A DNA stretch of 27,915 nucleotides, from positions 1-27,915 of IMG/VR virus record IMGVR_UViG_3300043756_000111; one strand, written 5' to 3'. The DNA is from a virus (Duplodnaviria; Caudoviricetes). Position numbers and translations under genes: made by a program. This document shows, one piece after another, positions 6,061-24,044 of the stretch. The notes under the pieces are model-generated. The model was not told the origin of the DNA. It made no database searches and was given only the letters and a program-made list of their open reading frames with translations. Each line of letters starts with the position of its first letter. The stretch's first letter is position 1.

Positions 6061-6089
6061 AATATAGGCCAAAATGGCCAGGATGGCAA
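6061..6089 (-). promoter_or_regulatory. sigma70-type leftward promoter with a palindromic spacer
   Basis: TTGCCA-17 bp-TATATT. The spacer contains GGCCATTTTGGCC. Confidence 0.7.
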
Positions 6090-6241: not shown

Positions 6242-6278
6242 GACTCCTTGTAGGCAGTGGCCTGTTGCAAGCGGCCAC
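6242..6278 (-). repeat. partial copy of the intergenic element (CTTGC hairpin plus CAAGGAGTC) with no gene behind it
   Basis: Minus strand GTGGCC-GCTTGCAACA-GGCCAC-TGCCTA-CAAGGAGTC. No start codon at normal RBS spacing. Confidence 0.65.
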
Positions 6279-6310
6279 AAAAAACCCCCGGAGCCTTTCG
6301 GCTTCGGGGG
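6279..6310 (-). terminator. Rho-independent terminator of the repeat-punctuated operon
   Basis: CCCCCGAAGCC-GAAA-GGCTCCGGGGG followed by TTTTTT on the minus strand. Confidence 0.85.
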
Positions 6311-7027: not shown

Positions 7028-7117
7028 GACTCCTTGTCGTGATAAACCGCGAGCAAGCGCGGTAGTGTTCGGATGAACACTATGACGCGGGCCGCGTAGG
7101 TCCGCGCTTAGTGCTCA
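7028..7117 (-). repeat. structured intergenic element, copy 1
   Basis: TGAGCACTAAG-CGCGGACC-TACGC-GGCCCGCG-TCATAGTGTTC-ATCC-GAACACTA-CCGCG-CTTGCT-CGCGG-...-CAAGGAGTC. Confidence 0.95.
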
Positions 7118-7246
7118 CGCTCAGTATGTATCCCATCCGCAAATGCGGATAACATGCCGAGTGCCGCCAAACATGCGGCGATAAAGAAAAAATCATGTCC
7201 AGAACGACCGGCATTTTCTGATAGGCCAGTACGTAAGTCTCATTGG

Positions 7247-7750
7247 CTACATTCTCCGTTGACGTGCACCGGGAGGCGACTTGACTTCTTGTTCGACCAC
7301 ATCGCGCTTGCCGTAGCCGTCGATGTTGACGGGCAGGCGCACAGTCGAATCAGTAAAACACCAGATGTGATATTTGTTGCTGGTATCAACCATCCGACTT
7401 TCGGCGGGATAGAGTTCGAAGCCTTCGCATTCATCGCCGACCAGCTGGTTCTTGATCCACTGGCGGTGGCGCCAATCAAAAATCGGCGCGCCATCGATGC
7501 GACGAATGTTGAGATGGATCATGTCTTGTTCGAACGCTTCGTTGCGGAAGCGGCGAACCTGAACCTGATACAAATCGTTGCGCCAGTACGTGCATGTGTC
7601 GTCGTAATCCTTGAGGCGCTTGCAGGCGGCCTCAAAATCCAGCCCGTACTGTTGCATCGCCACGTCAACGAAGTGTCGATACTTCGAATCGGTATAGTCG
7701 CGGCGGTCAACCGTAGCTTCCCGCAGCGGTTTCCAGTTCTTCTTGGTCAT
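7247..7750 (-). CDS. conserved phage protein (HLxIRRxD...W...KN...YPAES..VD...H.W family)
   Basis: 167 aa. The motif pattern recurs in uncharacterised phage proteins. RBS GAGGA. Confidence 0.8.
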   Translation of the reverse strand: MTKKNWKPLREATVDRRDYTDSKYRHFVDVAMQQYGLDFEAACKRLKDYDDTCTYWRNDLYQVQVRRFRNEAFEQDMIHLNIRRIDGAPIFDWRHRQWIKNQLVGDECEGFELYPAESRMVDTSNKYHIWCFTDSTVRLPVNIDGYGKRDVVEQEVKSPPGARQRRM

Positions 7751-7945
7751 CTATGACTTCCTCATTTGAGCGTTGTAGATAAGCCAATAGGTGACTTCCG
7801 CGATGGCGTTGTGATAGGTGTCGTCTCCAATCATGTCGTCTTCCTCGTATCCGCTGGCAACACTCAGGTAGACGCCAGCAGTTTTATTAGTAGGATTGGA
7901 GCGGAACTCGTCTTGTGCTTCGTCAAATGTTATCAGACGTCTCAT
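7751..7945 (-). CDS. hypothetical acidic protein (64 aa)
   Basis: Start MRRLITF directly after the element RBS. The track extension runs through the repeat. Confidence 0.7.
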   Translation of the reverse strand: MRRLITFDEAQDEFRSNPTNKTAGVYLSVASGYEEDDMIGDDTYHNAIAEVTYWLIYNAQMRKS

Positions 7946-7949
7946 TTCA

Positions 7950-8043
7950 GACTCCTTGTTTGTTGGTCGCGTGCAAGCGCGAGAGTGTTCAGGATGAACA
8001 CTATGAGACGGCAGGGCTCGCGCGCTGCCGTCCTTAGTGCTCA
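7950..8043 (-). repeat. structured intergenic element, copy 2
   Basis: Begins at the TGA stop of the ASCH gene. Upper stem GACGGCAG/CTGCCGTC, then TCGCG-CTTGCA-CGCGA and CAAGGAGTC. Confidence 0.95.
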
Positions 8044-8457
8044 ACGTTCGGCGTAGTGTCCGATACGATATGGTTCGAAGAACCCGAGACGGCCAGCGCA
8101 TTCTTTGAATGCACTAGGTCGCGAGTGCTCCAATACGAAACCGTACGGACCGAAGAACCAAGGCGAAAACAGTTGTTCGTGTCCAGGCGAATGTTGTTCG
8201 TGTACAACATCGACAAGATGGGAGCGCCCAACAATGCCGCCGCGTTTCAACTTATCGTCATCAGGAACAATGATGCCGAAACGCGAGCTAGCCCAGGATC
8301 GAATTTTGGCCCGTTCTTCTGGCGTGCCATACAAGTTTAATCCTGCGTGGATCAAGAACTCGCCTCTGAACTCAGTGGTCCAGGTTCGATTCTCGATGTT
8401 TTTGTGGCCGTGAACGATCAGCCATGCCCACGGTTGACGAATACTAAGCGCTTTCAT
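8041..8457 (-). CDS. ASCH domain protein
   Basis: MKALSIRQPWAWLIVHGHKNIENRTW (GxKxxExR), LIHAG, GGIVG and G.LGFF. Confidence 0.92.
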   Translation of the reverse strand: MKALSIRQPWAWLIVHGHKNIENRTWTTEFRGEFLIHAGLNLYGTPEERAKIRSWASSRFGIIVPDDDKLKRGGIVGRSHLVDVVHEQHSPGHEQLFSPWFFGPYGFVLEHSRPSAFKECAGRLGFFEPYRIGHYAER

Positions 8458-8460
8458 GGG

Positions 8461-8643
8461 TTATGATCTCACGGCAGGTTTGAGATCCGATAGGAACAAC
8501 GTTTCGTAAATGCCGTTGTCCCATTTGACCTCAGCAATCGCGCCCGCAATCGAAATGATCCGGCCGACATGACGCGGATCAGCAGCATTGTAGACGTGAT
8601 CGCCGCAATGGAACTTGAGGTGATCGCCACGTTTAGCTGGCAT
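8461..8643 (-). CDS. small hypothetical protein (SH3/Tudor-like beta pattern)
   Basis: FHCGDHV...VGRII...AEVKWDNG. RBS AGGAGG. Confidence 0.65.
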   Translation of the reverse strand: MPAKRGDHLKFHCGDHVYNAADPRHVGRIISIAGAIAEVKWDNGIYETLFLSDLKPAVRS

Positions 8644-8848
8644 GGGATTCCTCCTGTATCGCGATTTCGATCAGTTTGTCCCAGATTGGATCTCCTTGCT
8701 CGCCACCGATTGCGAGCGCCTCGATGGCGAGCTTCATGATTGAGACAGCTTGTGCGGGAGTAATCCGGCGCGATTGGAGATAATCGAGAAGCCTTTCGGT
8801 TTCGTTGAACGGGTCTTCTTTGATCAGTTGTGCTGACATGTTGGTCAC
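8633..8848 (-). CDS. hypothetical protein
   Basis: 71 aa ORF overlapping both neighbours. The start could be ATG 8839. Confidence 0.6.
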   Translation of the reverse strand: MTNMSAQLIKEDPFNETERLLDYLQSRRITPAQAVSIMKLAIEALAIGGEQGDPIWDKLIEIAIQEESHAS

Positions 8849-9093
8849 TCCGTCACGTGTCTATCGTAGTACTCCTTGACTTCGCGCGCGGCGTTGGCCA
8901 AGGTTTCATAGTCATAATTGAACGGCTCGATTTGTTTGGCATAGAGCGGCATGACCCGGTCTCGTATCCAATCACGCCAGCCGTTAACGTCCAGACCACG
9001 GCGCGCCATCAGGCAATGCAGCTGATAGAATTCGCCCGTGTTGATTGTGAACAACACCAGATCATGACGTTGGATCGTCGGTTTGTCTTTCAT
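8845..9093 (-). CDS. hypothetical protein
   Basis: 82 aa. Start follows the element RBS. Confidence 0.8.
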   Translation of the reverse strand: MKDKPTIQRHDLVLFTINTGEFYQLHCLMARRGLDVNGWRDWIRDRVMPLYAKQIEPFNYDYETLANAAREVKEYYDRHVTE

Positions 9094-9099
9094 CGTTTA

Positions 9100-9188
9100 G
9101 ACTCCTTGTAGTGATAACCGCGAGCAAGCGCGGAGTGTTCAGGATGAACACTATGAGGCGGCGCATGTAGCGCCGCCCTTAGTGCTCA
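9100..9188 (-). repeat. structured intergenic element, copy 3 (identical to copy 7)
   Basis: TGAGCACTAAGGGCGGCGCTACATGCGCCGCCTCATAGTGTTCATCCTGAACACTCCGCGCTTGCTCGCGGTTATCACTACAAGGAGTC. The first TGA is the stop of the vWA gene. Confidence 0.95.
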
Positions 9189-10775
9189 GTAGCGTACGCC
9201 AACGTCGATGGCGGGCGCGCCCCAAGGCGCGTGCGCAATGTATTGCCTGACGCGCTCGGGATATCCGTGCACCGCGAAGAGGACGGGGCACGATGGTTGC
9301 GGGCCTGGATCACCGATTTCGAGGTCCGTGAAATTGACGATCAAGGAACAATCGTCAATTTGCTCTTCGACATAGGCGAACAGCGGCCTCATGTCGGTGC
9401 CGCCACGGCCGCGCGGATCGAATACGATCTCATCTTGTTGATGATACGTATCAACTCGCGTGACTTGAACATCACCATAGACGACGATGATTTCATCGAT
9501 GGCGCCGTCGTCCAACGCAGCTTGCGTTTCGTCGCGAACCTGGGCCAGCGCGATGTCATCGCACGAGGCAGAGGTGTCAATCAGAAACGCAACTCGATTG
9601 ATACCGTCCCGTTGGCGTCCGGGCAGATACAATCCCTGGCCAATGAACCGGCGATTTGGTCGGTTCCAGGTTTCGGTTTGTAGCGATCCTTGATCGAACC
9701 ACGCGCGCAGCGTCTCGCGCCAATCCTGGGTTGGATTATTCGAGCGCTCGATCTCGGCGGTGACATGTCCAGGAAGTTGACCGCGCGCTTTCGCCATCGC
9801 GGCGGCCTGTCGAACGATCCGATCCCATTTCTGTTCAGGATCGGGTCCGTCCGTTGACGGCGGCGCGTCGAGAACCTCGCCCACGCTACCAGGGAAATCG
9901 CCGCCACCGTTGGACAGTGGCTTGCCATTTTCTTGTTCGCCGTCGTCGCCCTGGTCGCCTTCGGCTTGGGCGTCGCCTTCGCCCTCGGATTGTTCGTCCT
10001 CGGATTCGCCGTCGCCTTCGCCGTCGCCATCTGAGGATTTCTCGTCAGCTTGTTCGTCACTGTCACCAGTGCCGCCCTTGCCTTCGTTGTCCTGATCTTG
10101 CTCGCCGTGATCAGCATCAGGGCTTTCGCTCTTGCCGTCGCCGTCGTCTTGATCTTCGTCCTCATCGTCAGGATCGCCATTGCCGGTTGCGGTGTCGCCT
10201 TCGTCGGTATCGTCGGACGATTCATCATCGCCCTCGCCGTCGTCAGCCTCTTGATCTTCGGAGTCCTGATCGCCCTCGCCATCGCTGGCTTCAGGAGAAT
10301 CACTGTCCTCAGATTCCTGCTCGTCTTGCTGCTGCTGCTGTTTTTGCTGCCGCTGCTCATCGAGTTCCATGCTGCGATAAATGTCCTCAGCGGACATGCC
10401 TCGATATTTCTCATCAATCAGGACGTCGTCGAGTAGGTCAAAGCCCTGATCTTTGAGAACGAGATTTATCGCGTAGTCGCATGCCTTGTTCCAGCGTTCT
10501 GGATCACGATTGCCGCGTCGCATTGAATGCTTGCTTGCATCGTGTTCGCTTTCGTGCGCCTGAACGAAAACCACTTGTGTTTGACGTTCGAGACTGGCGA
10601 CGAAATCGGGGTTCCAGTAATGCTTGGTCGAATCCGTCGCTGCGCGTTTGACTTGACGCGACAGAACAGGCTCGACGTTTGAAACAAGGACACCATAAAA
10701 CCGGCGCGACATGATCAGCTCGGCACGGGCTTTCGCGACGCGCTCCGCTGCAATCTTGTCGTTTGGATTTTCCAT
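9186..10775 (-). CDS. putative metallopeptidase-vWA protein (DUF2201-like) with a long acidic linker
   Basis: Start MENPND after the element RBS. HESEH...H zincin-like motif and WNKACDYAIN. MIDAS DTSAS plus GGTD and FTD. D/E/G/Q-rich low-complexity middle. Confidence 0.88.
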   Translation of the reverse strand: MENPNDKIAAERVAKARAELIMSRRFYGVLVSNVEPVLSRQVKRAATDSTKHYWNPDFVASLERQTQVVFVQAHESEHDASKHSMRRGNRDPERWNKACDYAINLVLKDQGFDLLDDVLIDEKYRGMSAEDIYRSMELDEQRQQKQQQQQDEQESEDSDSPEASDGEGDQDSEDQEADDGEGDDESSDDTDEGDTATGNGDPDDEDEDQDDGDGKSESPDADHGEQDQDNEGKGGTGDSDEQADEKSSDGDGEGDGESEDEQSEGEGDAQAEGDQGDDGEQENGKPLSNGGGDFPGSVGEVLDAPPSTDGPDPEQKWDRIVRQAAAMAKARGQLPGHVTAEIERSNNPTQDWRETLRAWFDQGSLQTETWNRPNRRFIGQGLYLPGRQRDGINRVAFLIDTSASCDDIALAQVRDETQAALDDGAIDEIIVVYGDVQVTRVDTYHQQDEIVFDPRGRGGTDMRPLFAYVEEQIDDCSLIVNFTDLEIGDPGPQPSCPVLFAVHGYPERVRQYIAHAPWGAPAIDVGVRY

Positions 10776-10780
10776 TGTTT

Positions 10781-10868
10781 GACTCCTTGTCGTGAGTTGC
10801 TCGCGTGCAAGCGCGAGAGTGTACATCGGTACACTATGAGGCGGCCCGTAAGCCGCCCTTAGTGCATC
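10781..10868 (-). repeat. structured intergenic element, copy 4
   Basis: ATGCACTAAG-GGCGGCT-TACG-GGCCGCC-TCATAGTGTAC-CGAT-GTACACT-CTCGCG-CTTGCA-CGCGAG-...-CAAGGAGTC. Confidence 0.93.
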
Positions 10869-10871
10869 GGG

Positions 10872-11822
10872 TTAGGACAGAAACTTGCTGACGTCGGCGA
10901 GAATGTCGTCAGCCGACTTGGCAACGCTCTTGCGCGCCTTGTCGTTTTTCCGAAGTTCGTCAGCATCCTCGGCGCACAACTCTTTGGCCATGCGCTTGGT
11001 GATTTTGTCGAGTTCGGGATCATTGGTCAGATTGAAGGCTGGTAGTAAGTCAACAAGTTCGCGGACGTTCTTGACCAGGGAATCGCGGAAGACGCCCTCA
11101 GCCTTTTCTAAGGTGGTCCGCTTGCCTTTGCCGCTCTTGCGGCGCGTTGGCTGAGCGTACTCGACTTCAGCGGGCTTGTAGTCCTTCAATCGTTCCGCCA
11201 TGTGACCAACCGTTGCGATGATTTGTTCGATCGTCGCTTTCATCGCCCCGGCGACAGCTTGATCAGACGCCTCGGCGATCTCTTGCCGGATGTCTTCGAC
11301 GATCTCGCTATCGAGATCTGACCGAAAATCATCAGCGTCAGGCAGAGGCATGAACCGCAAAGTCATCTGGAACTTGTGCTCCATTTCCTCAACGCTCGGA
11401 TAGTCGGCCGGATCGAAGGCACCGTTCAGCTGCTTCTGCCGCTGTTTCACCGCCTCGGGATAGACGCGGATGAAGTTCTTCTTTGCCACCTCGAACTTTT
11501 GTTTCAGTTCGCGGAAATTGTTGGAGAAGTTCTCATACAGTGCATTCGGCAGAATACGCGGGCCTTCATCTGCCCAAGGACGCGTCACGCGGTAGTGCAG
11601 GAGACGCGCCTCGGAAACAAGTCCCTGAAGTTCGGCGAGATAGGATCCGCCGATCAGCAACTTGTTGTATCGTCCCGCATCTTCAGTTGCGGCATAGCGT
11701 TTATTGGTTTCTGTCGTGATCTTGCGATCCAGCTTGCGCGCGGACCATTGCGAGATCGTCAGCGAAACCAGCAACGCTTTGCGCTTCAACGGCGAGGCGA
11801 TTGCAGTTTGTTTATTAGCCAT
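10872..11822 (-). CDS. DUF3150-like helical protein
   Basis: ALLVSLTISQWSARKLD and DYPSVEEMEHKF. Lies between the AAA+ and vWA genes, the usual context for this family. Confidence 0.7.
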   Translation of the reverse strand: MANKQTAIASPLKRKALLVSLTISQWSARKLDRKITTETNKRYAATEDAGRYNKLLIGGSYLAELQGLVSEARLLHYRVTRPWADEGPRILPNALYENFSNNFRELKQKFEVAKKNFIRVYPEAVKQRQKQLNGAFDPADYPSVEEMEHKFQMTLRFMPLPDADDFRSDLDSEIVEDIRQEIAEASDQAVAGAMKATIEQIIATVGHMAERLKDYKPAEVEYAQPTRRKSGKGKRTTLEKAEGVFRDSLVKNVRELVDLLPAFNLTNDPELDKITKRMAKELCAEDADELRKNDKARKSVAKSADDILADVSKFLS

Positions 11823-11828
11823 TTCATT

Positions 11829-11922
11829 GACTCCTTGTCAGTAGAATTAACCCCGCTGCAAGCGCGGTAGTGTTCGGATGAACACTATGAGATGCCGCAT
11901 GTAGCGGCACCCTTAGTGCTCA
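11829..11922 (-). repeat. structured intergenic element, copy 5
   Basis: TGAGCACTAAG-GGTGCCGC-TACAT-GCGGCATC-TCATAGTGTTC-ATCC-GAACACTA-CCGCGCTTGCAGCGGGG-...-CAAGGAGTC. Confidence 0.95.
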
Positions 11923-11933
11923 CGTTCAGGAAG

Positions 11934-12977
11934 TTATTGAACGATGAGGTCGGCATTGGCTACGGCCCATTCGCCATAGCAGGACGTGTTCTTGAGACTT
12001 TCGTCACGGTTGGTGGCGTCGGTCACCAGTAACATTTCCTTTTCGCGGTTGAGGCGTTGCGCGTACTTCATGATATTGGCGAAATTCTTCTTGGTCGCCA
12101 TACGCGCTAGACCAGTGCAGACCGCATATTGTAGCGACGGCTCAGTCGGAATTGGCGCAGTGTCGGGATTATTAGCGACGTCATCTAGAGTTCCGATGCT
12201 GCGATAGATGCCGATGAAACCATCAAACTCGGCAGCGGGTCCGTCGCCGATATGAGCGGCGAACAAACGCAACCGGAGTTTATCCGAGGCGTTCACGTGT
12301 TTTGCTGCTGCAACGTTTGAACGCGGCGAAGGAAACGTGTTCTCATCACCGCGCGGCATTCGATGCAACAGACCGTCACCGGCCGCCTCACGAAAGCGAA
12401 GGAATGCGACCAACTCGGGCGATACGCCATTCGCATTCGCCCACAGGCAAAACGCGGGTAGATCCGGTTTGCAGAACAAGTGAGCGAACCGATTGCGCAA
12501 CGCGGTCGGCATGCGTTGTGCAGCGGCACGGTCGCTCACTCGATTCCCCGCTGCGACGATGACCCAGCCGTCAGGCAGGACATAATCGCCGACGCGGCGA
12601 TCGAGCACGAGACCAAACAGAACAGCCATCATTTGCGGCGATGCTGTATTGATTTCGTCCAGGAACAAGATGCCACGCTTCCCGTCGCGCTTCTCCTGTG
12701 GCAATTCATCAGGAACGAGCCACTTGGTTGAACCGCTTTTGAGATCAGGAACAGGAATGCCGCGAACGTCTACAGGCTCTCGCAGGTTGGCACGATATTC
12801 GATGACCTTGCGGTCAGTCGCCTCGCCCATCTGAAAGACGATTGCAGACTTGCCGATACCGGGCGGCCCCCATAGCATGACGGCGGCGCCAGCGTCGGTT
12901 AGTTCGCGCAGAAGCACGGCGGCCTCGGCCATCGTGACTTCATGTTCAGTAAGAATAGTAGGTGCTAGCATTGTCAT
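11934..12977 (-). CDS. MoxR/dynein-related AAA+ ATPase
   Basis: Walker A GPPGIGKS, Walker B ILFLDEIN, sensor I VAAGN, Arg finger ALRNRF and sensor II PSPRS. Confidence 0.92.
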   Translation of the reverse strand: MTMLAPTILTEHEVTMAEAAVLLRELTDAGAAVMLWGPPGIGKSAIVFQMGEATDRKVIEYRANLREPVDVRGIPVPDLKSGSTKWLVPDELPQEKRDGKRGILFLDEINTASPQMMAVLFGLVLDRRVGDYVLPDGWVIVAAGNRVSDRAAAQRMPTALRNRFAHLFCKPDLPAFCLWANANGVSPELVAFLRFREAAGDGLLHRMPRGDENTFPSPRSNVAAAKHVNASDKLRLRLFAAHIGDGPAAEFDGFIGIYRSIGTLDDVANNPDTAPIPTEPSLQYAVCTGLARMATKKNFANIMKYAQRLNREKEMLLVTDATNRDESLKNTSCYGEWAVANADLIVQ

Positions 12978-12978
12978 A

Positions 12979-13073
12979 GACTCCTTGGAGATGTGAACCG
13001 CGTTGCAAGCGCGGTAGTGATCGGACGATCACTATGGAACGGCGCTTTTACAAACGCCGCTCGGTAGTGAACG
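12979..13073 (-). repeat. structured intergenic element, copy 6 (most divergent full copy)
   Basis: CGTTCACTA-CC-GAGCGGCGT..GCGCCGTTC-CA-TAGTGATC-GTCC-GATCACTA-CCGCG-CTTGCAA-CGCGG-...-CAAGGAGTC. Confidence 0.9.
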
Positions 13074-13074
13074 A

Positions 13075-13320
13075 TCAGCACTCTTGTTCGATGCAGAGCG
13101 TGTCAGGAGTTATGAAAAAACCACGACGTGGGCGCATTATGTCGCCCGCATCAAGAAGTGGTTTGAGATACTTGGTAAGCGGCCAGCCAGCTCCAACACT
13201 GGCAGTAACACCGGCAGGCAGCAATCCAAGTCGCACCAGTTCGTGATACATTTCGGTGCGGCGAACGCCTCGACTACACAAGTCGATGATCGCGATGTTG
13301 GTCAGGTCGTCTTTAGTCAT
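13075..13320 (-). CDS. hypothetical protein
   Basis: 81 aa. Exactly fills the gap between element copies 7 and 6. Confidence 0.8.
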   Translation of the reverse strand: MTKDDLTNIAIIDLCSRGVRRTEMYHELVRLGLLPAGVTASVGAGWPLTKYLKPLLDAGDIMRPRRGFFITPDTLCIEQEC

Positions 13321-13327
13321 TGTTCTA

Positions 13328-13416
13328 GACTCCTTGTAGTGATAACCGCGAGCAAGCGCGGAGTGTTCAGGATGAACACTATGAGGCGGCGCATGTAGCG
13401 CCGCCCTTAGTGCTCA
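13328..13416 (-). repeat. structured intergenic element, copy 7 (identical to copy 3)
   Basis: Same 89 nt as 9100-9188. Begins at the TGA stop of the upstream gene. Confidence 0.95.
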
Positions 13417-13761
13417 ACGTAACGAATTCAGATATTCGTTGAGATTCGCTGTGAAGCGTTGCGCATTCGGGTGCGAGTTACGAAACCCGAGAGCGATCCA
13501 ACCATTGAACCACTCGCGTAACACATCGATTTGCTTGGTTGAGAATATGTTAACCATATCCTCATCGTCGCTCCAAACAATGCGCGCGGCGATATGGTTG
13601 CCGATGCGCTTTGCATTAAAGCTGTACGTCATCTCACCGTCACTCAGAACGAAGCGTCGGGTGTCGGTCACCTGATCAAGAAGTGTGAGTTCCTGTTGAT
13701 CGAACTTGTTGCCTTTCATGGCGCGATCAACGGTGTGCGTGATCAGTCGATTTGAGTACAT
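13414..13761 (-). CDS. hypothetical protein, first gene of the leftward operon
   Basis: Start reassigned to ATG 13761 (MYSNRL) after CAAGGAGTC. Confidence 0.78.
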   Translation of the reverse strand: MYSNRLITHTVDRAMKGNKFDQQELTLLDQVTDTRRFVLSDGEMTYSFNAKRIGNHIAARIVWSDDEDMVNIFSTKQIDVLREWFNGWIALGFRNSHPNAQRFTANLNEYLNSLR

Positions 13762-13767
13762 CGTGTA

Positions 13768-13830
13768 GACTCCTTGTAGTTTGATGAACCGCGTTTGCAA
13801 GCGCGGGTGATGCTGGATTGCATCCAGAAG
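13768..13830 (-). repeat. partial/lead copy of the intergenic element
   Basis: CCGCG-CTTGCAAA-CGCGG...CAAGGAGTC, preceded by a different pair of overlapping hairpins (CTGGAT/ATCCAG versus GATGC/GCATC). Confidence 0.8.
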
Positions 13831-14275
13831 AGGCACGGCACTCGATCCACAGAGGGCAATGGCCGCGCCCCTTCAAGATGCACACCTTGCAAGTGTGCAG
13901 TAGTAGGAGTCGGAGTCAGATAGATTGTTTTACGTCGTTCATACGTCACGCGCCGGGAACGCTATCATCGTTGAGCGCAGCGAACAGCTACTCGGATTAA
14001 ACCTACGATGGGAAGCAACGGAACCGCGACACCACGCACGAACAAGAAGTTCGTACTCGGCGAGAGCCTCTAGGGTGGACGTGCGACCAACAAGAAGTTG
14101 GCGCACGCGGGCAAGCCACCGCGCGCGTTGACTTAGACAGACTATGTATCAAACTGTGCGAGTCCTTGATGCCGTCACCTCGGGGGAGGCCCGGTTGACC
14201 CGGTCATTCGGCACAGATCGAATTGTCAATTAGCATGCGTAACGTTACCGTGTGTAACGTACGCTATGAACGTGC
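13831..14275 (-). ncRNA. candidate long structured 5' leader or ncRNA
   Basis: No convincing ORF between the promoter and the first gene. Several hairpins, including two with TTCTT loops and two with CTTGC in or at the loop. Confidence 0.5.
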
Positions 14276-14279
14276 ATAG

Positions 14280-14308
14280 AATATAGGCCATTTTGGCCAT
14301 AGGCGCAA
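14280..14308 (-). promoter_or_regulatory. sigma70-type leftward promoter with a palindromic spacer
   Basis: TTGCGC-17 bp-TATATT. The spacer contains GGCCAAAATGGCC. Closely matches 6061-6089. Confidence 0.7.
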
Positions 14309-16728: not shown

Positions 16729-16950
16729 ATGAAATCCAACGGCTCATATGCGGCGCGATACTTTCGCGAGATGCAGCGCATGACCTCGCTGCTTCAAGAT
16801 ATCTACACGCCAATCCAAGCGGTCGAATGGCTAGTGAAAAAGCACACATTGCTTGATGGCCAGAGCCCATCGCAATTGATTGCGCAGGGTCGCACGGAAG
16901 AAGTCGAGCATCTGATCGAACAATTACGCGACGGAGATCAGTTCACATGA
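16729..16950 (+). CDS. MbcA/ParS/Xre antitoxin C-terminal domain-like protein
   Basis: AVEWLVKKHTLLDGQSPSQLIAQGRTEEVEHLIEQL fits the W...L.G..P...G...V pattern. Confidence 0.7.
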   Translation: MKSNGSYAARYFREMQRMTSLLQDIYTPIQAVEWLVKKHTLLDGQSPSQLIAQGRTEEVEHLIEQLRDGDQFT

Positions 16951-17367: not shown

Positions 17368-17399
17368 GCTCACACTCTCATGAATCAAAGGAGATGGCC

Positions 17400-20132
17400 A
17401 TGCCGCTTCGTAAACCAAAGCCCGGCGAAAGCCAATCGTCATTCATGGAATATTGTATGCATGAAGTCTCGCAAAGTCCGGATCGCACCAATGAACAGAA
17501 TGTCGCGATCTGCCTGGACAAATGGCACGAAGTGCATCCGCGTCGGGCCGCCTCGAATTGGGTCTGTGGTGCATCGCGCGATCTACCAATCGCTGAGACT
17601 GAACGCGCCTGGGACGGCTCGGCAGCGGCGAAACGTATGTTGGATCGCGCCAATATCGGCGAAGAAGAAGGCGCGAAACCTGAGATGGCAAAGCTCGGAT
17701 TCCTGATATACGACCGGGCCAATGGCGAATTGCGTGGGTCGTATTCCTGCCCATTTGCCGATATTGTTGATGGAACATTGAAAGTCATCCCGTCCGGATT
17801 GCGGGCTGCGGCGTCCAGACTGCCGCAAGTGACCGATGTTTCGCAGAGCGTGAAGGATCGCGCTCGTGGAGTGCTCGATGCGTATTTCGCGCGGCTGGAG
17901 GACAACGACGACAAGGGCGCGAACGACGACAAGAGCACCAAACAGGATTACGATGGATATGACGCGCCCGACGTCGCGCCGGGGGAAAGCCAGGATCGGT
18001 ACATCGAGCGCTGTGTGATGGATTTGGAGCGGCAAGGCGCCGATGAAGGCGACGCCAGCCGATTGTGTCATCTCGCCTGGATGAATCGGACCTACTCCAG
18101 ACTGCGGCACAAGACGCATGCCGAGACCGTTCAGGGCATGGATTTTGTGTTGTCCGATGAATCAGAAGATCGGATGGGTGATGTAATTTCGGCGGCCGGT
18201 TGGGATCTAACAAACTTCTTGAAAAATCCGATTGCGCTGTTTGGGCACCGCAATGATTTTGTGATCGGAACATGGGAAGGTCTGCGCAGCGAAAAGAATG
18301 CGCTGCGCGGCAAACTCAAGCTCGCGCCAGCAGGCACCAGCGAGCGCATCGATGAAATTCGCAAATTGATCGAGGCCGGTATTCTCAAGGCGGTGTCGGT
18401 CGGTTTCAGACCAATCACCTCCGTGCCGCGTCGAGATGGCGACAAGTATGTCGGCGAACATTTCACGCGGCAGGAGTTGATCGAGACCTCCGTGGTCTCG
18501 GTGCCAGCCAATCCCAATGCGCTGGCGATTGCCAAGTCATTGGATATTTCCACTGACACGATGGATTTGGTCTTCGGCAAGCACGCCGCAGCGAGACCAA
18601 TCAGGAAGATCGGTGGTTCATTCGCCGAGCATGGCGCCAGCAATCAGAAGCTGAAGGAGCGCTCGCACATGAGTGCATTAACACAGCAGATTTCTCAGGT
18701 GGAAGCTGAGATTGTCGGAGTAAAGGACAAGCTCAAGGACTTCTGGAATAGCGTCGATCAGACCAATGTCACTGACGTCGAGATGCAGACCGCGCAGGAC
18801 TTGAACGAGGAACATGCGCGGCTCGACAAACTGCGCACGACGCTCAAAGAGTCCGAAAAATTTATGATGGAAACTGGGGAGCAAGAACATCGCCAGCTTG
18901 CGCTTCGGACCAACGGCGGCGGCAATGGCAGTGGCAGCGGAGAAATCCGCAGGCCGAACATCCAGACGGATCGTCGGCAGATGCCGAAGACCAAGGAGGA
19001 ACGGCTCGACATCATCGCGCGGGTCGGTGTGATCACGGTGCTCTCGCACATCAAGAAACTTAATCCTGAGGCGACGCGCCAGTTTATCGCCGCGCAGTAT
19101 TCGCGCTATGCCGACGAGGGCACCAAGGCGTTTCTGGATTATATCGGCAAGGCGCCGAGCGCGCCTGCCATGACCACTGTCGATGGGTGGGCGGCGGAAT
19201 TGGTTCAGCAAATCCATGCTGACTACATGGAATTGCTGCAACCCGATTCGGTTTTCCCGCGATTGTCGGCGTTGGGTCTCAGCCTGCAATTCGGTCGTGC
19301 CGGGCGTATCGTCGTGCCGACTCGATCGCGCACGCCGAGCATCTCCGGATCGTTTGTTGGTGAAGGCCAACCGATTCCTGTTCGTCAGGCCGCGTTCACG
19401 GCGCAGATTCTAACTCCGAAAAAAATGGCCGTGATCTCAACTTGGACCAGAGAAATTGATGAGAGTTCTATTCCTGCAATCGAAGGTCTGTTGCGCAGCG
19501 CGATTCAGGAAGACACAGCGGTCACGTTGGATTCGATCTTGATGGATGCCGACGATGCCGATGCGATCCGACCAGCTGGTCTGCAAAGCCAGAATCCGAT
19601 CGCCGGGCCGCCGCCAAATGGCAGCGGTGCCACCGAGGTTCTTCCTGCCGCGATCGGTGCGGCTGGTCCGTTCGGAGCACTAGTCGACGATCTCAAGGCG
19701 TTGATCGGTGCGCTGCTTGGTCCGACACAGGGCAACGTGCGTCGGGTCGTGTTGCTGATGAACCCGCAACAGAAGTTGTCGATCTCGCTGACAGCCATGC
19801 CGGGCGTGAGCGCATTCCCGTTCATGGATGCGATGGGTCGCAACGTGTTGTTGGATTACACGGTGATCGGTTCAGGCACGGTTCCGGCTGGCAAGATCAT
19901 CGCGATCGACGCCGCGGACTTCGTCACTGTGGGCGGTGAAGCCCCGCGCTTCGAGGTGAGTGACCAGGCCACGCTTCACATGGAGGACTCGACTCCGGGA
20001 CCGATCCATGGTTCTACTCCAGTGCGATCGCTGTGGCAAACGGATTCACTCGGTCTTCGACTGATACTCCCGATCAATTGGTGCATGCGGCGCGACGGAA
20101 TGGTCGCGTTTGTTGAGAACATCGCGTGGTGA
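17400..20132 (+). CDS. fused HK97-type prohead protease, scaffold and major capsid protein with an N-terminal extension
   Basis: Protease motifs DRMGD, PIALFGH, AVSVGF and ETSVVSVPANPNA, then a coiled coil, then capsid motifs FVGEGQPIP, LTPKKMAVI, DAADF and SLWQTD. AAGGAG lies 6 nt before ATG 17400. Confidence 0.92.
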   Translation: MPLRKPKPGESQSSFMEYCMHEVSQSPDRTNEQNVAICLDKWHEVHPRRAASNWVCGASRDLPIAETERAWDGSAAAKRMLDRANIGEEEGAKPEMAKLGFLIYDRANGELRGSYSCPFADIVDGTLKVIPSGLRAAASRLPQVTDVSQSVKDRARGVLDAYFARLEDNDDKGANDDKSTKQDYDGYDAPDVAPGESQDRYIERCVMDLERQGADEGDASRLCHLAWMNRTYSRLRHKTHAETVQGMDFVLSDESEDRMGDVISAAGWDLTNFLKNPIALFGHRNDFVIGTWEGLRSEKNALRGKLKLAPAGTSERIDEIRKLIEAGILKAVSVGFRPITSVPRRDGDKYVGEHFTRQELIETSVVSVPANPNALAIAKSLDISTDTMDLVFGKHAAARPIRKIGGSFAEHGASNQKLKERSHMSALTQQISQVEAEIVGVKDKLKDFWNSVDQTNVTDVEMQTAQDLNEEHARLDKLRTTLKESEKFMMETGEQEHRQLALRTNGGGNGSGSGEIRRPNIQTDRRQMPKTKEERLDIIARVGVITVLSHIKKLNPEATRQFIAAQYSRYADEGTKAFLDYIGKAPSAPAMTTVDGWAAELVQQIHADYMELLQPDSVFPRLSALGLSLQFGRAGRIVVPTRSRTPSISGSFVGEGQPIPVRQAAFTAQILTPKKMAVISTWTREIDESSIPAIEGLLRSAIQEDTAVTLDSILMDADDADAIRPAGLQSQNPIAGPPPNGSGATEVLPAAIGAAGPFGALVDDLKALIGALLGPTQGNVRRVVLLMNPQQKLSISLTAMPGVSAFPFMDAMGRNVLLDYTVIGSGTVPAGKIIAIDAADFVTVGGEAPRFEVSDQATLHMEDSTPGPIHGSTPVRSLWQTDSLGLRLILPINWCMRRDGMVAFVENIAW

Positions 20133-20661: not shown

Positions 20662-20861
20662 CGTGATACTCCCACGGTGCGAGGTTAGACTCGGCCGTCG
20701 TGTCACAGCGCGGCGGTCGAGTCGCTTAACAAATAAGGGCCGTCGTCGGCAGGCGCACGATGGACGTCACCAATCACTTGGCCGACGACGGCAGCAACAG
20801 CAGTCAGGCTATGGGTAGCACTGAGATCATGGCCGTCACGGCTGTGAACATAGCAGGAAAA

Positions 20862-21935
20862 ATGAGTCCGTTTGAAGCGAGAAAATCGGCGGTTCCGCCG
20901 CGCCCCTTCAGCGCATCGCCACGCAAGGCGGATGCGCTTGATCTGCTTGTGCGCGCAGCCATCGTACAAACCTATGCGCGCGTTCGTCGCATGGGCGTTG
21001 AGCAAGCGCGCGCGACAATCGCAATGAAGCGCCTGCGCTATGACGACGAAGCAACAAAGCTCATTTGCCGCGCAGCCAGTGCACCGGCCACGACGTTTGA
21101 TGTCGAATGGGCGTCTGAGCTTGTTGTTGCCGAGGGCGCCGATTTGATTTGCACGCTTATACCGCGCTCAACATTCGCGCAGCTTGCGGCACAGGGCATG
21201 CACCTCACGTTTAGCGGCCCGGAAATCCTGGTGCCCAATTATCTGCCGAATGTGCCGGGCTTGTTTGTTCGCCAGGGGGAACCGATTCCGGTGCTCCAGG
21301 GACAGACGACTGGCCAGTTGCTGACGCGAAAAAAGATGCCTTGCATTGTCACCTACACGGGCGAAATGTCCGAAGGCGCCATCGTGACGATGGAAGGCAT
21401 TTTCCGTACATGCATCACGGAGTCGACGACGTTGGCACTTGATGCCGTGTTGTTGGATGATCAGCCGGGAAGTGATGTTAGACCGGCAGGTCTACGCAAT
21501 GGTGCTGTCCAGGTTGCCAGCACGGGCACGCTGCACAGTGATTTACAATTGCTTGTAGAAGGATTGCTTGGGGTCGCCGACAATCATGTTCGTGCGCCGA
21601 TTTTGATCATGAATCTGGCGCAAGCGGTAGCTTCGCGCATGCAAGATTATAGAAACATCGTGCCGGTGATACCATCGCCGAGTGTTGCGCCCGGCACGGT
21701 GATGATGGTCGATGCGGCCGACTTTGCTTGTGCGGGCGGTCAAGTTCCGCGCGTCGAGATGTCGAAAGAAGCGGCGCTGCATTTCGACGATGTGGCTCCG
21801 GATCATCTCGATGGTGCAAGTCCTGTTCACAGTTTGTGGCAGGAGGAATTGTTAGGTCTGCGTGTGATTCTTGAAGTGGATTGGTGTTTGCGCCGTCCTG
21901 GCGTTGGTTGCTACATGATAGATGCGCATTGGTAA
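20862..21935 (+). CDS. second HK97-fold capsid protein paralog
   Basis: Collinear similarity to the capsid part of 17400-20132 (FVRQGEPIPV, LTRKKM, DAADF, SLWQ, WCLRR). Likely start ATG 20862 after AGGA; the track start is 20760. Confidence 0.85.
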   Translation: MSPFEARKSAVPPRPFSASPRKADALDLLVRAAIVQTYARVRRMGVEQARATIAMKRLRYDDEATKLICRAASAPATTFDVEWASELVVAEGADLICTLIPRSTFAQLAAQGMHLTFSGPEILVPNYLPNVPGLFVRQGEPIPVLQGQTTGQLLTRKKMPCIVTYTGEMSEGAIVTMEGIFRTCITESTTLALDAVLLDDQPGSDVRPAGLRNGAVQVASTGTLHSDLQLLVEGLLGVADNHVRAPILIMNLAQAVASRMQDYRNIVPVIPSPSVAPGTVMMVDAADFACAGGQVPRVEMSKEAALHFDDVAPDHLDGASPVHSLWQEELLGLRVILEVDWCLRRPGVGCYMIDAHW

Positions 21936-21951: not shown

Positions 21952-22989
21952 ATGGCAACGAAATTAGGCGCCAGACCGGGACGCAGAATAGGTGCTTTGT
22001 TTCGCAGTGGAGCGATACGTGAGTTAATTCCTTCAACACGTCCGCGCGTCGGTTCCATCAGCCCCAATAATGGTCCGTCAGCAGGCGGCACGACGATCAC
22101 GATCACGGGCGTTAATTTCACAGGCGTCACGGCGGTCAATTTCGGCAGCATCGCTGCGGCGAGTTTCACATTTGTCAGCGACAATCAGATCATTGCGACG
22201 TCGCCAGCGGGCAGCGGCGCAATCTTTGTCACCGTCGTCACGCCGGAAGGCGTCAGCCCAGGCAGCGCGGCGAATCGATTTAGCTACGCAGCGGCGCCAA
22301 CTGTTACTAATCTCAATCCAAATACTGGTCCCATCGCTGGCGGTACGACGGTCACCATCAGCGGCACGGGCTTTACGCCGACCTCGACAGTTGTGTTTGG
22401 TGCGACCGCAGTGGCCGTGACATTCGTCAGCGCCTCGCAGCTGACTGTGGTTTCCCCGGCCGCTGCGGCGGGCGCCGTGAATGTCCGCGTGACGAACACG
22501 GAAGGCACGAGTGCCATCGCGCCCGGCAATGTGTTCACCTATGGCCTGCCCGCGCCGACAATCATCAACCTCAATCCAAACACAGGCGCAACCACAGGCG
22601 GCACGGCCGTCACGATTACCGGCACGAATTTCACTGGTGTAACATCAGTCAACTTCGGCGGAACTGTTCTGTCGGCAATCGCCGCGCCTGGGGCTCCAAG
22701 TGTAGGAAGCATCAATCCGACCAGCGGTGTGGCAGGAACGCCAGTGACCATCACCGGCACAGGATTTATTGATACACCCGGTTTTATCTTCGTCAGCGCA
22801 ACGCAGATCAATGTCATCACGCCGCCAGGGACTGCTGGTGCTGCGAATGTGACAGTGACAACACCTAATGGCACGAGCGCGCCAGCCACGTTCACTTATG
22901 TCTCGCAGTCTCCGACTGTTGCGAGTATCAATCCGACGAGCGGACTCGCAGGCACGACGGTGACAATAACAGGGACAAACTTCTCATGA
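21952..22989 (+). CDS. IPT/TIG Ig-like repeat virion protein
   Basis: Repeated P.V..I.P..G...GGT.VTITG.NF.....V.FG....VS.TQI...P units. Confidence 0.88.
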   Translation: MATKLGARPGRRIGALFRSGAIRELIPSTRPRVGSISPNNGPSAGGTTITITGVNFTGVTAVNFGSIAAASFTFVSDNQIIATSPAGSGAIFVTVVTPEGVSPGSAANRFSYAAAPTVTNLNPNTGPIAGGTTVTISGTGFTPTSTVVFGATAVAVTFVSASQLTVVSPAAAAGAVNVRVTNTEGTSAIAPGNVFTYGLPAPTIINLNPNTGATTGGTAVTITGTNFTGVTSVNFGGTVLSAIAAPGAPSVGSINPTSGVAGTPVTITGTGFIDTPGFIFVSATQINVITPPGTAGAANVTVTTPNGTSAPATFTYVSQSPTVASINPTSGLAGTTVTITGTNFS

Positions 22990-24044
22990 CCGTGACCGCC
23001 GTCCACTTCGGCACAACATCAGTGCCATTCACCGTCGTCAATGCGACGACAATCACTGCCAATGCGCCCGCTGGTTTATCTGGTGCTCAGAATGTGCGGG
23101 TGACGACAACGCATGGCCAGAGTCCGATCTCGGCGGCGTTTACTTATACAGCAGTGGCAGCACCGACGATTACAAGCCTGAGTGTGAACACCGGGCCAGC
23201 GGCGGGCGGCACCGCAGTGACAATTACTGGTACTGGTTTCACTGGCGCAACGGCAGTGAATTTTGGTGCCGCGGCAGCGACCTCCGTTGTCGTCGTCAGC
23301 GCCACGCAAATCACCTGCGTCTCGCCTCCAGGCGCGGGCGGCGTCAATGTAACAGTTGTCCATCCCACGAATGGCACAAGCAATGGCATGGCCTGGACCT
23401 ATGCGGCAGCGTTGGTTGCGCCAGTCATCACCAGCGCGAACGTCGCCGCTGCGACGGAAGGACAGCCGTTCAGCTACACGATTACGGCTTCAGGCAATCC
23501 GGCTCCAGCAATTGCGACTGGGTTCAATGCAACGGGTTTACCGGGATGGTTGACGCGCACCAACAATGTTGTCTCAGGAACGCCACCTGCTGGTTCTGGA
23601 ACGACTTCAGTGACCTTCACAGTGACGGCACAAAACAGCGAAGGCACGAGCCCCGGAGTGTTAGTGACTGTGAACATAGCAGCGCCGACGGCTGGTTGGT
23701 CAATCGATTGGGCTGGACCGTCGGTGGCCGTAATCACGGGCGCGGCGGGACATATTCCTCTTACTTCCATTCCAGGTTGGAACCCAGCGTGGAACGTCGA
23801 TATGACGGAAGACAATCTTTATGATCGGCCAACGATGGCTGATATGCCGGTCAATCTATTTGCGCAATTCGCCAACAATCCAGGGGTGTGGGTTGGTCCC
23901 ATTCATTTCAATAATTGGGGTCCAGGAACCGCTGCCGGTAACACGGTTCAAAATTGGGGTTGGAATGATTCTCCTCCGAGGATTGAGATTATCGCTTCTA
24001 ACGCAACCAGCCAGCCAGTTCAATTGCGGCTCGTCAAGACTTAG
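22986..24044 (+). CDS. IPT/TIG plus He_PIG-like Ig domain protein
   Basis: Starts with the second part of an IPT domain, followed by a full IPT, then FSYTITASG..ATGLPGWL..VSGTP and a W/N-rich C-terminal domain. Confidence 0.85.
   Translation: MTVTAVHFGTTSVPFTVVNATTITANAPAGLSGAQNVRVTTTHGQSPISAAFTYTAVAAPTITSLSVNTGPAAGGTAVTITGTGFTGATAVNFGAAAATSVVVVSATQITCVSPPGAGGVNVTVVHPTNGTSNGMAWTYAAALVAPVITSANVAAATEGQPFSYTITASGNPAPAIATGFNATGLPGWLTRTNNVVSGTPPAGSGTTSVTFTVTAQNSEGTSPGVLVTVNIAAPTAGWSIDWAGPSVAVITGAAGHIPLTSIPGWNPAWNVDMTEDNLYDRPTMADMPVNLFAQFANNPGVWVGPIHFNNWGPGTAAGNTVQNWGWNDSPPRIEIIASNATSQPVQLRLVKT

Follow-up and report, generated by a model that had tools for sequence, protein, structure and literature searches.

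A repeated phage mRNA module with two alternative helices and a candidate link to upstream translation termination

Comparison of a repeated intercistronic element with its homologues supports the presence of two mutually exclusive RNA helices, both conserved and under selection in the mRNA sense. The element lies in a minus-strand gene cluster of a soil-type phage, a Caudoviricetes record (IMGVR_UViG_3300043756_000111, positions 1 to 27,915), analyzed over its full length of 27,915 nt (the window). Each module is about 95 bases long and holds, in mRNA order, strand A, a GC stem (U), strand B, strand C, a hairpin (D), an A/C-rich linker and the ribosome-binding site (RBS) GGAGUC, such that B can pair with either A or C. 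As judged from the sequences, the preceding gene's stop codon is in or just before A, U begins ~10-11 nt after that stop, and B:C sits flush on D. The best explanation we can offer for the whole, which we hold to be a serious possibility just short of probable, is an intercistronic translation-sensor module with an RNase III gate and an antisense RNA encoded in the operon leader.

The two helices and their conservation

Seven full copies occupy positions 7028-13416, all on the minus strand and between genes, and two partial copies consisting of D and the RBS are found at 13806-13768 and 6278-6242; 10 of the 11 minus-strand GGAGTC sites of the window fall inside the cluster. A/B/C read GAGCACTA/TAGTGTTC/GAACACT in copies 1, 2, 3, 5 and 7, and the D loops of the window are CUUGCA or CUUGCU. 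The minus strand folded far better than shuffled sequences for all seven copies (z scores of -3.7 to -5.6, 0/200 shuffles each), and the plus-strand folds of three copies gave z scores of -2.6 to -4.4. Over 91 nt, copies 3 and 7 do not differ at all, so they are not independent.

Relatives were gathered by pattern searches and by alignment to the DUF3150-like protein of the cluster, from the best 80 of 308 viral matches, the best 80 of 274 metagenome matches and four genome loci. A covariance model with U pairs only then returned 273 matches in 100 sources, which, after removal of opposite-strand and duplicate matches, left 205 distinct elements in 70 loci, among which one or two partial matches of doubtful orientation may persist. 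The seed was picked for window-like copies with TGA, a choice that biases sequence counts, not reading frames. Pattern scans gave mostly chance hits (one yielded 3 real loci among 120, another 0 of 15), and a locus search with a single protein returned nothing. In the four complete genomes with several matches, all copies were in a single ~6-kb cluster; a fifth genome had one weak match. The gene content between copies differs among relatives. A blastn search with one copy against 50,697 phage records gave no match among cultured phages, and the DUF3150-like protein matched three cyanophage records at only ~31%. Rfam 15 gave only a chance SorX match, elsewhere in the window, and 0 matches in eight related loci.

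Covariation was assessed with a custom G-test and a tree-based null of 60 simulated alignments, not with R-scape, on the top 150 matches (138-139 non-redundant) aligned by the U-pairs-only model. The original prediction had described two mutually exclusive helices in the copies and had called for a covariation check on an extended alignment; both helices were present, and each had covarying pairs of its own among the homologues. Columns 15-62 of A:B reached E~0 (14-63, E=0.15), columns 67-84 and 68-83 of B:C reached E=0.017 and E=0.05, respectively, and seven U pairs covaried at E~0. Pairing was kept in 86% of cells for A:B, 94% for B:C and 98% for U, in support of the earlier suggestion that both folds are under selection, though A:B is the looser helix, with column 10-67 unpaired in 55 of 138 sequences. 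Function in the mRNA sense, which had been proposed from several non-canonical pairs, also was consistent with the larger set: across the 205 elements, mRNA-strand G-U pairs outnumbered A-C pairs in U (151 vs 18), A:B (189 vs 87) and B:C (76 vs 43).

Other parts of the original prediction needed correction. Three-way covariation was overstated; some changes do involve all three strands, but the columns that reach significance are not the same in the two helices, and three-strand changes (for example, CGC six times and GCG eight times) form a minority. The strands of copies 4 and 6 are as first written, but all three change at one column only in each; in addition, a U-U mismatch is present in copy 6, and the helix of copy 4 ends in an A-C. 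The internal loop given as AG/TCA is actually A/CA closed by a G-U pair. The strongest three-strand case is found in the leader modules of three relatives (L170, L262 and L280), where A, B and C are all replaced and both pairings kept. At one column, B and C change jointly while A stays constant (ACG in 12 of 138), since this A forms the final base of the UGA that ends the upstream gene.

Predicted stabilities are compatible with a switch between the folds. The median energies in 141 elements were -10.7 kcal/mol for A:B and -7.7 kcal/mol for B:C, making A:B ~3 kcal/mol stronger, and 106 of 173 elements were predicted to fold into A:B when free and into B:C when A was masked. The B-C spacing is variable, and B:C stacks on hairpin D with no gap in 90 of 115 elements. 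Minimal modules without C and D also exist.

The copies, all on the minus strand, are as follows in mRNA order. Copy 7 (13328..13416) has its UGA stop/A at 13416-13408, U at 13406-13384, B at 13381-13372, C at 13368-13362, the D loop from 13356 and the RBS at 13333-13328. Copy 6 (12979..13077), 5´ of the MoxR-like AAA ATPase gene, has the stop at 13077, A at 13073-13065, U at 13062-13037, B at 13034-13025, C at 13022-13016 and the RBS at 12984-12979. Copy 5 (11829..11936), 5´ of the DUF3150-like gene, has the stop at 11936, A at 11922-11914, U at 11912-11890, B at 11887-11878, C at 11875-11869 and the RBS at 11834-11829. For copy 4 (10781..10874), 5´ of the DUF2201 peptidase/VWA gene, the stop is at 10874, A at 10868-10860, U at 10858-10839, B at 10836-10827, C at 10824-10818 and the RBS at 10786-10781. 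Copy 3 (9100..9188) has the UGA stop/A at 9188-9180, U at 9178-9156, B at 9153-9144, C at 9140-9134 and the RBS at 9105-9100. Copy 2 (7950..8043) begins with the UGA stop of an ASCH-domain gene (stop/A 8043-8035), followed by U at 8033-8006, B at 8003-7994, C at 7990-7984 and the RBS at 7955-7950. In copy 1 (7028..7117), A is at 7117-7109, U at 7107-7085, B at 7082-7073, C at 7070-7064 and the RBS at 7033-7028. The first module of the cluster (13768..13806) has only the D hairpin and RBS; it follows a different long hairpin and precedes a 115-aa open reading frame (ORF; 13414-13761). Many D loops (CUUGCAA, CUAGCAA), such as that at 13009-13003 (minus strand), look like an anticodon loop of 7 nt whose wobble base varies. 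The D loop was also considered as an internal -35 box and rejected, no -10 being present at the proper distance.

Stop codon placement and candidate outputs

Upstream ORFs were selected by RBS-led length, measured 30 nt ahead of U and without regard to their endpoints. The stop was 10-24 nt before U in 127 of the 128 high-confidence long upstream ORFs, and U began 10-12 nt after the first base of the stop in 80 of them. Among 161 ORFs of at least 40 codons, 105 stopped at the codon inside A, 55 upstream of A and one beyond; in other words, 105 of the 106 ORFs that reach A end exactly at its stop codon. These 105 span 41 of 57 unrelated upstream protein families. A +1-frame stop just before U was available in 50 of the 105 elements and was used by no ORF, and in stop-at-A elements with a C opposite in B, the A of the stop was kept and the pair broken in 24 of 24 cases.

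Here and below, statements about published work refer to the accessible parts of the papers cited by accession. The first free base of a terminating ribosome is +9 from the first base of the stop (PMC7518266). When the stop is in the A site, the ribosome covers the mRNA to about +9, which would take in all of A and none of U, which starts at +10/+11. Given this placement, we consider it quite likely that the trigger is a ribosome terminating on the upstream gene; it probably is not a ligand. In the mechanism we propose, the A:B stem begins at the upstream stop codon and would be melted by the terminating ribosome, whereupon freed B would pair with C. If the upstream gene is not translated, A:B would stay in place, presenting an RNase III half-site, and the mRNA may be cut between the genes; B:C would mask this site, as the predicted cut is inside the B:C loop between B and C. 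Because loss of ribosomes leaves the downstream A:B in place, silencing would spread and become irreversible.

The match of A:B to an RNase III half-site makes gated cleavage our best guess for the output, though a tentative one. The published consensus, WNAGWGNNCWUNNN^N, is called weak (PMC4357697). B is in register with the half-site, with a strict match in 84 of 201 elements and a core match in 130; the consensus is that of E. coli. Across all 648,553 positions of these loci, counting the elements themselves, there are just 110 strict matches. The distal/middle box AG-WG is paired with CWCU: B positions -12 to -9 are A in 167, G in 200, U in 192 and G in 188 of 201 elements, and paired in 161-196. 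Pairing is high from -13 to -5. In the proximal box, -6 is C in 167 and -5 is A in 166 elements (paired in 192 and 174), -4 is paired in 121, mostly as G-U, and -3 in 70. A single set of boxes suffices for RNase III cleavage (PMC1540722). No phage-encoded RNase III was found in five genomes (0/5). A reading of B and C as two halves of one RNase III site was discarded, the 3-4 nt spacing being too short.

RBS occlusion as the output is argued against by the predicted energies. The cost of opening the RBS differed between the two folds by a median of 0.14 kcal, and real C paired with the RBS region less than shuffled C did (5.8 vs 6.3, p=1e-6). A role of C as an anti-RBS was dropped, given that opening energies barely differ and that a 0.5-kcal effect vanished against shuffles. 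Free B, with A and C both masked, raised the opening cost of the RBS region from 5.4 to 7.0 kcal/mol (by more than 1 kcal in 84 of 141 elements); real B occluded slightly more than shuffled B (7.0 vs 6.6; 82 of 141).

The operon leader and the weighing of explanations

The leader of the cluster, which lies outside the coordinates of the original prediction, carries a tandem GACUCC (13906..13917, minus strand), complementary to the GGAGUC RBS of every module, and a 9-bp hairpin (13880..13898, minus strand) whose loop, UUGCAAG, is complementary to the D loops CUUGCA/CUUGCU. The order of GACUCC and then the anti-D loop is antiparallel to that of D and then the RBS. Upstream, ~350 nt of structured, apparently non-coding sequence (13920-14270, minus strand) extends from a promoter-like site to the GACUCC pair; relatives' leaders are 250-400 nt.

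To compare relatives, the search was anchored on GACUCC alone and gave 15 distinct leaders. A hairpin loop with at least 5 nt of complementarity to the phage's own D type was present in 11 of the 15 (permutation p=4e-5, kinship uncorrected), and four further anti-D leaders were recognized by eye (L158, L164, L253 and L297). At three points on the DUF3150 tree the D loop is altered (to AUGCA, CUAGCA and CUACCA), and each alteration is matched in the leader loop; there are at least four loop types. Within a phage, identity is 92% among D loops, vs 56% for the adjacent stem, and D loops differ between phages; complementarity to D of the kind seen in the leaders occurs in only 3 of 54 internal U loops. 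The leader loops of L262 and L297 are a better match to D loops further downstream than to their own first D, and L253 lacks D in its first module. GGAGUC sites are present in every locus that has a GACUCC leader; no such leader was seen in nine loci with mainly GGAGAA/GAU/GCA, for some of which the leader is outside the view. The combined anti-RBS and anti-D pattern occurred once on the sense strand of G002, at the leader, and not on that of G005, G007, G008, G001, G004, G009 or G010. A tyrosine integrase is encoded in 4 of 10 related records (G004, G005, G007 and G008), none of which has an anti-D leader, so lysogenic immunity is not supported.

These complementarities point to a leader-encoded antisense RNA, which would block initiation by base-pairing with the modules at the D loop and the RBS. 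The identity of the D loops, the few matches among U loops and the leaders better fitted to downstream D loops all suggest action in trans, which we hold to be credible if not quite probable. It is rather unlikely, but worth stating, that leader RNA, phage-specific kissing-loop code, anti-RBS hexamer and ribosome switch together form an RNA-only system for operon-wide silencing that converts lost translation into cleavage and shuts genes off one by one, as an early-gene timer or heteroimmunity code; the timer is as plausible as immunity.

A number of observations weigh against the scheme of a ribosome-triggered switch, RNase III gate and leader RNA. Masking A trivially favors B:C, 21% of elements fold into B:C even when free, and C is absent from 20 of the 205 elements by a lenient test for which the control was positive in 48 of 205. 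Copy 1 has no convincing upstream ORF ending there and is predicted to fold into B:C even when free. Stops upstream of A (55 of 161) lie as far as 24 nt from U, a distance at which melting is questionable, and ribosomes at stops -18 to -24 may not reach A; the base of the helix does not follow the stop position (rho 0.05), and the idea that the A:B base tracks the stop was not supported. With respect to RNase III, the weak E. coli consensus is itself a caution. Pairing at -3 and below is at background (at most 70 of 201; control offsets 52-85), no lower stem or helix below the predicted cut was found in the elements, and the helix across the cut falls short of 11 bp, the stated minimum (PMC1540722); mapped RNase III sites are more than 90% paired around the cut (PMC11780869). 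The CW of the proximal box is lost in 20 of 47 elements with the stop further upstream, vs 5 of 80 with the stop in A, and part of the half-site match thus is explained by the UGA. For the leader, no anti-D loop was seen in nine cases (L137, L142, L155, L174, L183, L189, L190, L201 and L278), yet those phages keep conserved D loops; three more leaders were ambiguous and are not counted here. In all 15 of 15 leaders, moreover, cis pairing between GACUCC and the first RBS is predicted, which could be the sole job of GACUCC.

Several of these points bear on other explanations. The ribosome trigger might operate with no nuclease gate, with U insulating genes in the manner of a ribosome termination structure (RTS), A:B capping untranslated RNA or 3´ ends, and C parking B, which keeps freed B off the next RBS region and D rigid. 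The 1.6 kcal that free B adds to opening the RBS region, the tendency of real C to avoid the RBS more than shuffled C, the gap-free abutment of B:C on D and the RTS-like position all fit, but real B occludes little more than shuffled B and the AGUG-NN-CA of B, in register with the RNase III consensus, goes unexplained; we regard this explanation as unlikely. Constitutive T7-like RNase III sites, giving single-gene mRNAs with protective hairpins and an incidental B:C, would account for the half-site match, for one site between each gene of one polycistronic cluster with copies confined to ~6 kb in four genomes, and for the minimal modules without C and D. Constitutive cutting is nevertheless quite improbable, since B:C covaries significantly on its own and is present in 185 of 205 elements, the strict in-frame stop placement would not be required, and the lower stem is missing.

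We also consider improbable a switch in which a phage protein or metabolite, bound to the phage-specific D loop, drives the change from A:B to B:C, the leader doing no more than lock the first gene in cis. Such a switch would fit D loops that are uniform within a phage and different between phages, their conservation in the nine phages without a visible anti-D leader loop, and the strong cis pairing of GACUCC, but it leaves the stop codon placement unexplained, and the matched leader-loop changes and better downstream fit in L262, L297 and L253 point to RNA-RNA pairing; moreover, Rfam gave no match to a riboswitch or any known aptamer family. Finally, the copies might be DNA-level repeats, either operators or recombination cassettes like the PeSLs of T4-type phages, with the RNA folds a by-product. 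The identity of copies 3 and 7, the varying gene content between copies and the inverted repeat formed by B..C would agree with this. The compensatory changes, variable B-C spacing, mRNA-strand G-U bias and reading-frame selection, however, are signatures of RNA and translation, and no promoter was found inside the copies (one 9/12 promoter-like match overlaps copy 6, with 3 found vs 4.7 expected by chance). DNA repeats as the explanation are largely refuted by the covariation and highly improbable, though shuffling may still occur as a side effect. A consensus scan also found no terminator-like site in any copy.

If the proposed sensor and leader RNA are real, the module would be a naturally occurring, repeated sensor of whether the previous gene has been completed by a ribosome, and the leader would bring a swappable RNA address code by which one RNA controls many RBSs. 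mRNA structure at stop codons would then serve as a sensor with two states instead of as a passive RTS, in a directly testable case. The module also may account for the conserved repeats found near gene starts in other phages and could supply ready-made orthogonal parts for synthetic operons.

The gene cluster, its surroundings and known systems

The window carries terminase, protease-capsid and HNH genes, and its minus-strand cluster, from ~14.3 to 6.3 kb, encodes a MoxR-like AAA ATPase, a DUF3150-like protein, a DUF2201 peptidase/VWA protein and small ORFs. The core regulated genes (9186..12977, minus strand) are those for the AAA_5/MoxR-like ATPase (11934-12977), the DUF3150-like protein (10872-11822, below the Pfam cut-off) and the DUF2201_N+DUF2201 protein (9186-10775). 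Transcription of the cluster likely starts at a promoter-like site (14280..14308, minus strand; TTGCGC, 17 nt, TATATT) that has a GGCC-N5-GGCC palindrome in its spacer and is absent from the output of a sigma-70 consensus scan. Similar sites are found 5´ of 12 of 14 related clusters, in the style CTTG-N17-TATAT, which we take to be alphaproteobacterial; one homologous module is on a 2.7-kb contig of an Alphaproteobacteria metagenome-assembled genome (L316). The cluster transcript likely ends at a terminator-like hairpin with a U run (6310-6279, within 6242..6310, minus strand), not in the terminator scan output, followed by a lone D hairpin (6278-6257) and GGAGUC that form the second partial copy.

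The GGCC-N5-GGCC palindrome occurs at 14286-14298 and 6067-6079, in the spacers of two minus-strand promoter-like sites, and relatives have phage-specific palindromes at the same spacer position; these likely are repressor operators. On the plus strand, a single 912-aa ORF, carrying a long extension at its N terminus, fuses the prohead protease and the major capsid protein (17394-20132), and a 391-aa ORF after the HNH gene (20760-21935) resembles a capsid paralogue by eye, with no Pfam match. Two neighboring proteins of tandem IPT/TIG domains (21952-24044) are followed by a large ORF, open at the contig end (24059-27915), with collagen-like GPT repeats and at least four repeats of ~168 nt, a probable tail fibre. 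Also on the plus strand are an ABC-type ATPase fused to a GNAT acetyltransferase (807-1925), 3´ of a ParB-like protein, and a small Xre/MbcA/ParS antitoxin-like ORF between terminase and protease-capsid (16729-16950), where no portal gene was recognized.

The T7 RNase III sites lie between early genes. Like these sites (R1.1 and its minimal form; PMC1540722), the modules are intergenic hairpins, in a phage early transcript, with distal, middle and proximal box sequences in register on A:B; unlike them, the modules have no helix below the predicted cut, mostly fail to match pb3/pb4, overlap the upstream stop and carry a competing strand C. An RTS (Chemla 2020, PMC7518266) also has a stable stem at the edge of the terminating ribosome, ~+10 from the stop, and the stem of the module does start just outside that ribosome. 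The RTS, however, is a generic stability signal depleted inside operons, whereas the module is conserved, repeated, two-state and inside an operon. PeSL cassettes (PMC2839356) likewise are repeated regulatory cassettes between non-essential early genes and likely substrates for shuffling, but hold a promoter and terminator, neither of which is in the modules. The SAS/ESAS of Cluster K mycobacteriophages (PMC3203893), for which an RNA or protein partner has been suggested, share, at many genes, an RBS whose conservation goes beyond 16S pairing and which is linked to an inverted repeat upstream; they differ in sequence and host, and alternative helices, a stop-codon link and a complementary leader are not reported in the accessible part of that paper. 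The combination is not described in the accessible part of PMC5737381, and we found no description of this element in the literature, though subscription papers and the supplements of PMC5737381 (224 motifs) could bear on its novelty. The window and eight related loci gave no sequence or structure match to the Rfam C4 families, nor was sequence or Rfam similarity to P4 CI RNA, Gifsy-1 IsrK or P1 c4 seen.

In phage P1, the c4 RNA comes from a transcript's 5´ part and pairs with sites on its own operon. The leader has the corresponding arrangement, being encoded 5´ of its targets in the same operon and holding two complementary sites in 11 of 15 cases. P4 CI RNA and Gifsy-1 IsrK (PMC4825925) also derive from the 5´ part of a transcript and pair with their own operon, and IsrK shifts two alternative folds, as is proposed for the module. 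Such RNAs act on one or two sites, whereas in the present phages an operon has 8-9 RBS modules that answer to a single two-part address, a loop kiss plus an anti-RBS, with a loop code specific to each phage.

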